Shown piece after piece: positions 20,642-22,911 of a stretch of 64,000 nt of DNA (position 1 is its first letter; each line of letters opens with the position of its first letter). This DNA is from Escherichia coli (GTDB lineage Bacteria > Pseudomonadota > Gammaproteobacteria > Enterobacterales > Enterobacteriaceae). The stretch lies in the NCBI RefSeq assembly GCF_009931435.1, contig NZ_CP043414.1; one strand, written 5' to 3'. A model generated the notes under the pieces. The model was given only the letters and a program-made list of their open reading frames with translations, searched no databases and was not told the DNA's origin. Position numbers and translations under genes: made by a program.

Positions 20642-21297
20642 GTGTGCCCGGAGTTCAGGGCGGGCATGGATGCTTAAATGAACCGCGAGTCTGTCTGGAA
20701 TATTGAACCGGTAACTCACGATGAGAAACCCAACAATCCCACCGGGTGTGACGGTGGAGAACCTGAGCGGCAGTGACCTGCGGCATGCCCGCAGGGTGAT
20801 GTAACCCGCTGACAACGGGGATTGAGGCGAGATCACTAAGCCGAGATGATCCTCAAGGTTAAGTACTGAAAGGCTGAAGAACATGAACCCGTTAATCCGC
20901 CTCTGTGGGTTGAAAACGTCACCACGGCCTACGTGATCTGACAGGCCGTGCAGGAGGAACTGGCAGTGATACGTAAGCACTGCCGGTCGAAGGTGTTTTG
21001 ACATGTATGCGAAACACCGGGGCAGCAGCGTCTATCACGCTTGCGTTGCTGACTTCTGCCAACTTGCGGCAAGCAAGGATAAAGAGTGCGACGGGCAGCC
21101 TCCTCAGTATGCCTGAGTCCAGGCAGGTAAACCGGGGAAGGTCAGCGACGGATGTTAAGGGGGCATGGCTCCGATGACGCGCTGGCTGGCGGAGCTTCCG
21201 TAGTAGTCCGCGATGGGGAAAGCCCATTACATGGCGAAGGGAAGCAGTTTGAATGTGTTTGCGACGTGAATTAACTGACCTAACGAGGTGAAGACCT

Positions 21298-22821
21298 TTG
21301 ATAATCAGCGAAATGCAACGCAAGCTTGCCACATGGGCAGTCACCGATCCGTCCCTACGGATTCAACGGCTGCTGCGTCTGATAACACAACCAGAATGGC
21401 TGGCTGAAGCGGCGCGGATCACGCTTTCATCAAAGGGGGCCCATACCCCCGGCGTTGATGGCGTGAACAAAACAATGCTACAGGCCAGACTGGCTGTTGA
21501 GCTGCAAATCCTCAGGGATGAATTACTCTCAGGCCACTACCAGCCCTTGCCCGCCAGACGGGTTTACATCCCTAAAAGCAACGACAAACTGCGACCACTG
21601 GGTATCCCCGCGTTGCGGGATCGTATTGTTCAGCGGGCCATGCTGATGGCGATGGAGCCGATATGGGAGAGTGATTTTCATACGCTCTCATATGGCTTCC
21701 GGCCTGAGCGCAGTGTCCACCACGCTATCCGCACGGTGAAATTACAGCTCACAGACTGTGGTGAAACCCGGGGACGCTGGGTGATTGAAGGCGACCTGTC
21801 CAGTTACTTCGACACCGTACATCATCGACTGCTGATGAAGGCTGTACGCCGCAGGATCAGTGACGCACGTTTCATGACTCTGCTGTGGAAAACCATCAAG
21901 GCGGGACATATCGATGTCGGTCTCTTTCGGGCGGCCAGTGAAGGTGTGCCACAGGGCGGTGTTATATCGCCGCTATTATCGAACATCATGCTGAATGAGT
22001 TCGATCAATACCTGCATGAGCGCTACCTGAGCGGGAAAGCCAGAAAAGATCGGTGGTACTGGAATAACAGTATCCAACGGGGCCGAAGTACGGCGGTCAG
22101 AGAAAACTGGCAGTGGAAACCCGCGGTGGCGTACTGCCGCTATGCCGATGATTTTGTCCTCATCGTCAAAGGCACCAAAGCACAGGCGGAAGCCATCAGG
22201 GAGGAGTGTCGGGGTGTGCTCGAAGGCAGTCTGAAACTCAGGCTGAACATGGATAAGACTAAAATCACCCATGTTAATGACGGCTTTATCTTTCTGGGGC
22301 ACAGGATCATTCGCAAACGCAGTCGTTATGGCGAGATGCGAGTGGTCTCAACGATCCCGCAGGAGAAAGCCAGAAACTTCGCCGCATCGCTGACAGCACT
22401 GTTATCAGGCAACTACAGTGAAAGCAAAGTCGATATGGCTGAACAACTCAACCGAAAACTGAAAGGCTGGGCCATGTTCTATCAGTTCGTTGATTTTAAG
22501 GCCAAAGTCTTCAGTTATATCGACCGTGTCGTGTTCTGGAAGCTGGCTCACTGGCTGGCCCGCAAATACCGTACAGGTATCGCTTCCCTGATGAGGTGGT
22601 GGTGTAAATCACCGAAACCGGGTCAGAGCAAAACGTGGGTTTTATTTGGTAAAACCAATCACGGCAAGCTCAGCGGCGAAATACTGTACCGGTTGGTGGG
22701 GCAAGGCAAGAAGCTGTTCCGCTGGCGGCTACCCGAAGGTAATCCCTATCTGAGGACGGAGACCAGAAACACGTATACATCGCGCTTTACAGAAGTGGCA
22801 ATGGCGTTCGCCAGCATTTAA
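21298..22821 (+). CDS. Group II intron-encoded reverse transcriptase/maturase
   Basis: 507 aa; RT motifs (…RRVYIPK…LRPLGIP…, YADDFVL) followed by maturase X-like domain; located inside the intron. Confidence 0.85.
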   Translation: MIISEMQRKLATWAVTDPSLRIQRLLRLITQPEWLAEAARITLSSKGAHTPGVDGVNKTMLQARLAVELQILRDELLSGHYQPLPARRVYIPKSNDKLRPLGIPALRDRIVQRAMLMAMEPIWESDFHTLSYGFRPERSVHHAIRTVKLQLTDCGETRGRWVIEGDLSSYFDTVHHRLLMKAVRRRISDARFMTLLWKTIKAGHIDVGLFRAASEGVPQGGVISPLLSNIMLNEFDQYLHERYLSGKARKDRWYWNNSIQRGRSTAVRENWQWKPAVAYCRYADDFVLIVKGTKAQAEAIREECRGVLEGSLKLRLNMDKTKITHVNDGFIFLGHRIIRKRSRYGEMRVVSTIPQEKARNFAASLTALLSGNYSESKVDMAEQLNRKLKGWAMFYQFVDFKAKVFSYIDRVVFWKLAHWLARKYRTGIASLMRWWCKSPKPGQSKTWVLFGKTNHGKLSGEILYRLVGQGKKLFRWRLPEGNPYLRTETRNTYTSRFTEVAMAFASI

Positions 22822-22826
22822 ATGGA

Positions 22827-22860
22827 GAGCCGGATGCGCTGAAAGGTGCACGTCCGGTTC
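22827..22860 (+). ncRNA. Group II intron domain V (catalytic hairpin)
   Basis: GAGCCGGATGCGCTGAAAGGTGCACGTCCGGTTC: 34-nt hairpin with AGC triad and GAAA tetraloop, followed by domain VI with bulged A about 7 nt from the 3' splice site. Confidence 0.7.
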
Positions 22861-22911
22861 GGGGAGGAGAGGCAGGGAAATAGTCCGACTACGCCCTGCC
22901 TCTTACTCTAC

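Follow-up and report, generated by a model that had tools for sequence, protein, structure and literature searches.

The segment at 20642–22911 on the + strand of the window, i.e. of the whole stretch of 64,000 nucleotides of Escherichia coli DNA analysed here, is with a probability of about 93% a full-length and intact-looking copy of the group II intron E.c.I4 (bacterial class A, 2270 nt) that retrohomed into its known target in orfB of IS629. The occurrence of E.c.I4 in IS629 is not new: it is annotated in RefSeq (ltrA), is ordinary in E. coli and, as the literature is cited through PMC3522654, has been known since the early 2000s (Dai & Zimmerly 2002). The same intron homes into the IS3-family transposase genes of IS629, IS911, ISEc16 and ISEc31, and its population dynamics have been analysed previously (PMC3522654).

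Intron boundaries and host element

The sequence-only reading of this DNA had proposed a group II intron of about 2270 bp starting with GTGTG, and an insert of 2270 nt is found. Its 5' end GTGTG occupies 20642–20646, and its 3' end ...CTCTTACTCTAC (..CUAC) is at 22911, both in agreement with the group II consensus ends used here (5' GUGYG and 3' AY). The ends GUGUG/AC are unchanged in copies sitting in other hosts. The insert coincides in 2267 of 2270 nt (99.87%, no gaps) with the published E.c.I4-2b of E24377A; the reference copy was NC_009801 4848623–4850893 from Table S3 of PMC3522654, and the three substitutions fall at intron nt 327, 943 and 1043. E.c.I4, whose Shigella twin is S.f.I1, has the same length of 2270 nt, the same type of host gene, the same position after D-x-T-Y and likewise an intron-encoded protein (IEP) without an endonuclease (En). 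Apart from the three substitutions and its own chromosomal locus, the copy studied here shows no difference of substance from it. E.c.I4 was placed in class A, among introns with En-less ORFs (PMC3552965), and the class of the 20642–22911 intron was taken from that paper via sequence identity.

The IS629 element (IS3 family) carrying the intron spans 19847–23426 on the + strand, 3580 bp in total and 1310 bp without the intron. It has the terminal inverted repeats TGAACCGCCCCGG.../...CCGGGGCGGTTCA and is flanked immediately outside its ends by the target-site duplication CCA (19844–19846 on the left, 23427–23429 on the right). It contains an intact orfA of 108 aa (19901–20227, +), an A6 slippery run at about 20219–20224 and the ALIL pseudoknot, the stimulator of the −1 frameshift in the IS3 family (Rfam RF01497, 20182–20298, +; 117.8 bits with the gathering score of 50). 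The earlier description of the IS as intact apart from the intron is thus borne out.

The orfB gene is divided into exon 1 (20224–20641, +), which ends with ...W-V-A-D-F-T-Y and one further base, the first of the codon split by the intron, and exon 2 (22912–23384, +), which covers the remaining DDE catalytic domain; in D-F-T-Y, the D supplies the first catalytic residue (Asp) of the DDE triad. Without splicing, the orfB reading enters the intron and stops at 20706, giving a 160-aa product. Joining 20641 to 22912 restores a continuous OrfB of 296 aa (…ADFTY|…), as had been claimed from the sequence; the NCBIfam model for IS3 transposases, NF033516, recognises it with 315.9 bits (cut-off 160), and the spliced sequence with a simulated −1 shift yields an OrfAB of 404 aa. 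Once joined, the IS aligns without gaps over 1310 bp, at 99.54% identity, with an uninterrupted copy whose annotation includes a programmed frameshift. The earlier assignment to an IS629-like element of the IS3 family holds; the PGAP name for the identical locus is "IS3-like element IS629 family transposase". When the flanks were compared with intron-less copies, the uninterrupted junction was found in 4566 E. coli records, some of them 100% identical; therefore the exon join is no accident of the reading frame. This is of practical use for annotation: what is called here as two "partial/frameshifted IS3 transposase" pseudogenes is a single intact IS629 with an intron in it, and not a decayed element.

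Intron-encoded protein

The IEP, comprising reverse transcriptase (RT) and maturase (X) domains, is encoded at 21298–22821 (+). The 507-aa ORF of the sequence-only reading was recovered with the start at TTG 21298, preceded by GAGG 9 nt upstream; the RefSeq start in identical copies is ATG 21313, which gives 502 aa. The protein is full-length, and copies with 100% identity have the same protein in RefSeq, named ltrA. It passes the cut-off of the TIGR04416 model group_II_RT_mat (338.4 bits, cut-off 300), matches Pfam RVT_1 (E 7e-34) and GIIM (E 1.3e-10), and has the YADD motif at aa 282, numbered from the TTG. A search for an HNH/D-En endonuclease found no Pfam domain past GIIM, and just one Cys occurs in the C-terminal 95 aa.

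The gene name in RefSeq originates from ltrA of the Lactococcus lactis intron Ll.LtrB, which likewise has a six-domain ribozyme with the RT/maturase in domain IV, is mobile by retrohoming, and likewise has a domain IVa hairpin covering the start codon. Ll.LtrB is a IIA/ML intron whose protein carries a DNA endonuclease domain and whose target is a relaxase gene. By contrast, in the E.c.I4 protein studied here the X domain is followed by a short extension only, and no HNH motif is present.

Structure of the intron RNA

The Rfam Intron_gpII model (RF00029) matches 22825–22911 with 64.9 bits (gathering score 40, E 1.7e-10). The domain V hairpin quoted in the sequence-only reading lies at 22827–22860 (+); it is 34 nt long and has the AGC triad, the GAAA loop and the 2-nt bulge. 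Compensatory changes G-C to U-A and C-G to U-A are observed in this domain in the Brucella and Salmonella relatives. In domain VI (22863–22909, +; from the fold and the Rfam alignment) the bulged A reported earlier is A22905, the predicted branch point, which forms a single bulged base 7 nt from the 3' end in both the MFE and centroid folds. The fold of domains V and VI together has z = −5.8 relative to shuffles.

At a permissive E-value, Rfam returned only DV/DVI-type models in the region 20500–23050, and no group-II-D1D4 family. Hence domains I–IV were tested with our own alignments and an RNAalifold consensus, so that of the covariance-model mapping of all domains suggested initially, the Rfam part was obtained for domains V and VI and replaced by our consensus for the others. 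Domain I occupies 20647–21136 (+), with a closing helix formed by intron nt 6–10 and about 491–495 (RNAalifold, 5 and 18 relatives), and most of its helices show compensatory changes in the consensus. It is followed by a short domain II at 21141–21190 (+; consensus helices 22–24) and by domain III at 21194–21245 (+; consensus helices 25–27), with compensatory changes in nine pairs; group II introns from Firmicutes and Sinorhizobium share the domain III block at 81–93% conservation. The domain IVa hairpin at 21275–21308 (+; consensus helices 28–29) includes the Shine–Dalgarno GAGG (21285) and the TTG start (21298). Its sequence GAGGTGAAGACCTTTGATAATCAGCGAA has the same letters in the Brucella relative, otherwise 61% identical over the aligned 5' part.

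The consensus of domains I–IVa from 18 relatives contains 154 pairs, with 94.8% of cells paired. Compensatory changes were seen in 77 pairs, compared to 38.5 ± 3.6 in shuffles (0 of 500) and 18–30 in slid controls, these counts coming from the same alignment on which the structure was predicted. Domains I–IV are thus supported by covariation across 18 relatives, and the structure extends beyond a domain V-like hairpin to domain VI and the co-varying domains I–III.

Exon recognition

Two candidates for EBS1 are suggested by the alignment. UGUAUG (21004–21009, +) lies at the distal junction of domain I, where it occupies the loop of the second hairpin; it pairs in 5 of 6 positions with the window's IBS1 CUUACG and has the best family-wide co-variation with positions −6..−1 of each intron's own exon (74 of 96 cells, permutation p = 0.012, uncorrected). 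The alternative candidate, CGUAAG (20972–20977, +), lies in a 9-nt hairpin loop whose stem co-varies in 10 of 10 pairs; it makes 6 of 6 Watson–Crick pairs with the IS629 exon CUUACG and 4 of 6 at the other E.c.I4 site examined, and its family-wide co-variation has permutation p = 0.09, uncorrected.

Other pairings were rejected. UGUGGGU (intron 263–269) pairs 7/7 with two exons via G-U wobbles, yet does not co-vary in relatives and is also partly base-paired in the consensus; UGAUA (20967–20971), considered as EBS2 for exon −11..−7, gave p = 0.8, and no supported EBS2 was found. The conserved GGGUGAUGU (intron 153–161), in the 5' part of domain I, is complementary to exon −12..−4 in most relatives; nothing is claimed from this, since the exon motif is so conserved that chance matches arise. 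With 19 sequences, testing single intron columns for covariation with exon positions gave no information.

Distribution and genomic locus

Of 5426 complete E. coli genomes, 2668 have matches to the intron, about half, at 5495 places on chromosomes and plasmids, and another IS3-family host carries the same intron at the codon homologous to this one. In the window, IS629::E.c.I4 adjoins tmaR/yeeX at the edge of a CP4-44-type island, consistent with the genomic island noted before. This chromosomal locus is common to 16–18 other complete genomes. Intron-less IS629 was not found at this exact site: wherever the IS is present there, in 16 genomes, it carries the intron. This pattern fits either order of IS insertion and homing. 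The 64-kb window contains neither a second intron copy nor an empty IS629 homing site, and a scan of 19600–23700 for promoters and terminators gave nothing above chance. The + strand has positive GC skew. The sense strand of the intron is therefore the template for lagging-strand synthesis, as would be expected of an En-less intron; this is one case and weak evidence on orientation.

Three other readings of the locus were weighed against that of an intact, retrohomed E.c.I4. One holds that the intron is a recent but inert passenger that neither splices nor moves, in a dead, insertionally inactivated IS629. The presence of the intron in all 16 genomes with the IS at this site would agree with stable inheritance, decayed relatives are known (the Salmonella pESI copy with GUAUA and a broken ORF, the truncated Y. 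pestis copy), and the promoter scan is also as expected for such an element. However, the ORF is full-length, the boundaries, the domain V triad and the branch A are intact, and the sequence is only 3 nt off copies in other IS hosts. Thousands of copies in the population are at least 99% identical, and this near-identity points to recent activity of the E.c.I4 sequence type. We consider an inert passenger rather unlikely. That an RT of another system (retron, DGR or Drt/abortive infection) stands beside a fortuitous DV-like hairpin deserves hardly any credence. The weak secondary NCBIfam matches it could appeal to, retron St85 (52.6 bits), Drt3a (51.5) and Drt2 (47.9), are far under their cut-offs of 235, 200 and 390, respectively, whereas group_II_RT_mat exceeds its own. 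GIIM is present, domains V and VI score above the Rfam gathering threshold, domains I–III co-vary, and excision restores the host gene precisely.

It is also conceivable, if improbable, that the 3580-bp composite IS629::E.c.I4 arrived by transposition as a unit, and not by homing of the intron into a resident IS629; the transposase would then have come from spliced mRNA or, in trans, from other IS629 copies. The perfect 3-bp CCA duplication flanks the composite, no complete genome has an intron-less IS629 at this site, and the same composite is found at several unrelated loci, beside tail-fibre, integrase and fimbrial genes. The same observations would also arise if the intron had retrohomed early into an IS629 already resident here and the arrangement had then been inherited vertically, and E.c.I4 occupies many IS3-family copies through homing. 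Moreover, IS3-family transposases preferentially act in cis, and it is exactly the cis supply of transposase that the intron blocks. Retrohoming into IS629 remains our preferred account.

Expected mobility and effect on the transposase

By analogy with established group II introns, the IS629 transcript would carry the intron, and the IEP would be translated from domain IV and bind the intron RNA. The intron would leave as a lariat through A22905, and the resulting RNP would reverse-splice into intron-less IS3-family copies. Since the protein has no endonuclease, cDNA synthesis would be primed by nascent strands at replication forks. The 404-aa OrfAB would be made only from spliced mRNA, the unspliced products ending at 20706. 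Splicing and mobility of the 20642–22911 copy are suggested by the intactness of its sequence. Comparative traces of mobility for this intron are the thousands of nearly identical copies, the exact insertions in different host elements and the empty sites.

RmInt1 from Sinorhizobium meliloti, a class D intron residing in ISRm2011-2, is the model of an intron in an IS that acts as a retroelement and hardly restores its host gene. It is likewise endonuclease-less and likewise homes into an IS transposase gene; unlike E.c.I4, it belongs to another intron class and has another IS host, and its domains I–III match those of E.c.I4 in a short conserved block only (81.7% over about 60 nt). In vivo, ligated exons amount to 0.07% for RmInt1 in ISRm2011-2 (PMC3035460). 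By this analogy, exon ligation of E.c.I4 here is probably very inefficient, which would make the IS629 copy close to silent and a safe harbour for the intron. The initial claim that transposase expression depends on splicing is right in its logic; in practice near-silencing is likelier, and the intron more likely silences this IS629 copy than regulates the transposase by splicing. The nesting is a textbook case: a DNA transposon serves the retroelement as a landing pad that is harmless, present in many copies and horizontally mobile.

Relatives and their target

Introns sharing the first 32 nt of E.c.I4 were found in about 25 gammaproteobacterial species, including Photobacterium, Marinobacter, Pseudomonas, Halioglobus, Erwinia, Rahnella and Pectobacterium. 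The target was checked in relatives with readable 5' exons (27 of 29 genome loci and 4 plasmid loci). They are nearly always inserted after GAY NNN ACN TAY N, which encodes the motif of the first catalytic Asp; the loci L022, L023/L028 and L024 deviate. The host genes are spread over several subgroups of IS3, and two loci of Photobacterium frigidiphilum have the intron in IS6-family transposases (W-R-M-D-E-T-Y).

The E.c.I4 lineage may be a specialised parasite, and in practice a silencer, of DDE transposase genes generally, beyond a few E. coli IS3 elements; we advance this only tentatively, holding it possible but on balance doubtful. If a G/U-tolerant EBS reads the coding sequence of the catalytic motif, a single intron could move from one IS family to an unrelated one, and an E.c.I4-type intron could naturally brake IS spread. 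The D-x-T-Y site shared by IS3 subgroups and apparently IS6 could interest targetron engineers and students of IS expansion restrained by introns. A more distant relative on a Brucella plasmid, with a differing 5' end (GTGCG...), occupies the same D-F-T-Y position.

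Identity and distribution of the intron

The insert spans positions 20642 (GTGTGCCC...) to 22911 (...CTCTTACTCTAC) on the + strand, and its length of 2270 nt agrees with the sequence-only reading. It was compared with E.c.I4-2b from strain E24377A, located by the Table S3 coordinates of PMC3522654; a gap-free alignment of the two over 2270 nt shows three substitutions. The E.c.I4 copies of strain IAI39 are given as 2270 bp (PMC3522654), and E.c.I4 is assigned to bacterial class A, grouped with ORFs without an endonuclease domain (PMC3552965). The gene interrupted in E24377A is another IS3-family member, in which the intron lies at the homologous codon (...D-V-T-Y).

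The intron was matched in 2668 of 5426 complete E. coli genomes, with 5495 chromosomal and plasmid locations, most of them at least 99% identical, and is also plasmid-borne in Klebsiella, Salmonella, Enterobacter, Citrobacter and Yersinia. RefSeq labels the matches 'ltrA: group II intron reverse transcriptase/maturase', inside IS3-family transposase pseudogene calls. The insert is a known, common element that is already routinely annotated. The finding is real and was read correctly, yet is not new; the only mildly new point, a modest lead, is the recurrence of the same catalytic-motif site in many Gammaproteobacteria, apparently across two IS families. Two relatives are decayed: one on a pESI-like plasmid of Salmonella Infantis (L005) starts with GUAUA and has domain I deletions and a broken ORF, and one on Y. 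pestis pMT (L003) ends at about intron nt 1165.

Intron-encoded protein

The longest ORF within the insert (21298–22821, + strand) encodes 507 aa when counted from TTG, as had been proposed. This TTG is preceded by GAGG 9 nt upstream, and the entire segment GAGGTGAAGACCTTTGATAATCAGCGAA is unchanged even in the Brucella relative, which has 61% identity over the aligned 5' part and for which PGAP chose TTG as the start. In identical E. coli copies PGAP starts at the ATG at 21313, yielding 502 aa. Given these observations, there are two candidate starts; 507 aa is a defensible length, with ATG 21313 as the alternative.

The protein scores 338.4 bits with TIGR04416 (group II intron RT/maturase equivalog; curated cut-off 300) and 47.9–52.6 bits with retron and defence-RT models (cut-offs 200–390), so it is not of the retron/DGR type. 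The only domains found with Pfam were RVT_1 and GIIM, the domain of group II maturases. The protein contains YADD, and its last 95 C-terminal residues include only one cysteine, so an HNH endonuclease domain is absent.

Ribozyme structure

Rfam Intron_gpII (domains V–VI) matches 22825–22911 with 64.9 bits (gathering score 40). The region 22822–22911 folds into a domain V hairpin of 34 nt and a helical domain VI in which only A22905, seven nucleotides before the 3' end, is bulged (z-score −5.8 vs dinucleotide shuffles); both domains had been recognized from the sequence alone. In the relatives from Salmonella and Brucella, domain V also carries compensatory changes.

Since none of the domain I–IV models in Rfam matched, relatives were gathered for an alignment of our own: four from plasmids (Klebsiella 90%, Salmonella 84%, Y. 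pestis 91% and Brucella 67% identity) and 29 further loci from species-representative genomes scanned with a DNA pattern. The structure test used 18 sequences with 61–100% identity to the window across the 5' 680 nt. In the RNAalifold consensus a long-range helix closes a multi-branched domain I, short domains II and III follow, and a domain IVa hairpin covers the ribosome-binding site and start codon; 94.8% of the cells are paired. Compensatory changes were found in 77 of 154 pairs, compared to 38.5 ± 3.6 in column shuffles (none of 500 reached 77) and 18–30 in controls with partners slid by 1–3 columns. These counts are biased towards the consensus, as the structure was predicted from the same alignment; still, the margin over both controls is large. 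Group II structure thus extends beyond domain V. A block of about 60 nt at 21190–21251 (intron nt about 549–610, J2/3–domain III) is conserved far above the rest of the ribozyme, with 81–93% identity to plasmid-borne group II introns from Cytobacillus, Clostridium, Sinorhizobium and Enterococcus.

Target site recognition

The 5' exon was readable at 27 of the 29 genome loci and at the four plasmid loci. Nearly all these introns sit immediately 3' of GAY NNN ACN TAY N, which comprises the codons of the D-x-T-Y motif, with the first of the catalytic Asp residues, and one further base. The exceptions are three sites: L022 (...TGC), L024 (D-F-A-Y) and the one shared by L023 and L028. The latter two, from assemblies labelled Chryseobacterium sp. 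18061 and Citrobacter sp. 18056, respectively, are identical in all compared segments of the intron and of both exons. They seemingly lie on the same 13.85-kb contig (13852 and 13845 nt), which suggests cross-labelling or contamination. Their 5' exon is atypical (D-V-T-D, GACGTCACCGATG), its upstream part being unlike an IS3 N-terminus.

The host genes belong mostly to several subgroups of the IS3 family. In Photobacterium frigidiphilum, two 5' exons (L034, at about 6993, and L036, at about 3222) end with W-R-M-D-E-T-Y and match the first 76 positions of the IS6-family transposase model NF033587 (E 9e-30 and 1.5e-27). Both loci share the first 32 nt of the intron; insertion into IS6-family rather than IS3-family genes is suggested but not complete, because the contigs stop about 120 nt into it.

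Two adjacent hairpin loops in the distal part of domain I are candidate EBS1 sequences, as either could pair with the six bases that end the exon. CGUAAG (20972–20977) forms 6/6 Watson–Crick pairs with IS629 and 4/6 with the E24377A site; UGUAUG (21004–21009) can pair at 5/6 positions with each and co-varies best with each intron's own exon among the relatives (74/96, permutation p = 0.012, uncorrected). No EBS2 candidate was supported by the family-wide test among the relatives.

The interrupted IS629

The IS, delimited by inverted repeats at 19847 and 23426, measures 1310 bp once the insert is removed and is flanked by 3-bp direct repeats CCA. Its orfA is intact, with an A6 run where orfA and orfB overlap, and it has the ALIL frameshift pseudoknot (117.8 bits). 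Joining 20641 to 22912 restores an unbroken 296-aa OrfB (315.9 bits with the NCBIfam IS3-family transposase model, cut-off 160), and a 404-aa OrfAB results when a −1 shift is simulated after splicing. Both the restored frame and an IS intact apart from the intron had been predicted. The joined IS has 99.54% identity and no gaps relative to an uninterrupted copy with a RefSeq-annotated programmed frameshift; PGAP labels the 5' half of an identical locus 'IS3-like element IS629 family transposase'. A 300-nt joined-exon probe is uninterrupted in 4566 E. coli records, in some with 100% identity, so precise excision would restore a real, common sequence. In pO157-type plasmids (for example NC_002128.1, pO157 Sakai, 65790–65865) only the first 76 nt of the intron occur, with 94.7% identity, under an IS629 annotation, a 5' stub remaining in the IS.

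By established group II intron biology, IS629 transcripts would carry the intron, and domain IV would yield the protein, which would bind this RNA and assist its splicing as a lariat via A22905. By reverse splicing, the ribonucleoprotein would then enter IS3-family genes at D-x-T-Y sites lacking the intron and copy itself, with priming at replication forks, as the intron has no endonuclease. All products of unspliced mRNA end at 20706, and the catalytic domain is cut 3' of its first Asp; active transposase thus does need splicing, as had been proposed. In RmInt1, the one well-measured intron in an IS, ligated exons come from only 0.07% of transcripts (PMC3035460), and by this analogy near-silencing of the present copy is more likely than expression regulated by splicing. 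The RmInt1 authors proposed that introns in ISs limit IS spread (PMC3035460), and the same general point is made in PMC3522654.

Locus and history of the copy

To the left of the IS lies an EutP/PduV-like gene fragment (19324–19749, − strand) adjoining tmaR (yeeX), and to the right, a truncated IS110-family transposase gene (23543–23932, − strand). The locus is the border of a CP4-44-type island (cbtA/cbeA, yeeS/T, Ag43) downstream of his-sbcB-yeeA, so placing it inside a genomic island was fair. STEC-type genomes have a different IS3-family insertion close to the same EutP/PduV-like fragment, and the spot therefore appears to collect insertions.

The intron may have homed into an IS629 already present here, or the composite of 3.58 kb may have inserted as a unit. 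The same arrangement, including flanks, occurs in 18 complete genomes. The left IS/chromosome junction was found in 16 genomes, all 16 with the intron, and no intron-less IS629 was found at the exact site among them; the composite is also seen at unrelated loci.

GC skew is positive on the + strand of the window, making the intron sense strand the lagging-strand template. This orientation is preferred by endonuclease-less introns, and the fit is weak evidence from a single case.

Within the island, a full-length match to the Rfam IS102 RNA (34908–35111, − strand, 253.5 bits) indicates an IS903/IS102-type element. Three tRNA-Asn (GTT) genes within 7 kb (51603–51678, −; 54012–54087, −; 58572–58647, +) form the asn tRNA cluster, at which islands integrate in E. 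coli; the IS-bearing island sits between this cluster and the his operon. The core-genome part contains the His operon leader (8112–8235, − strand, 131.6 bits) and the sRNA STnc240 (10974–11048, + strand, 69.3 bits).
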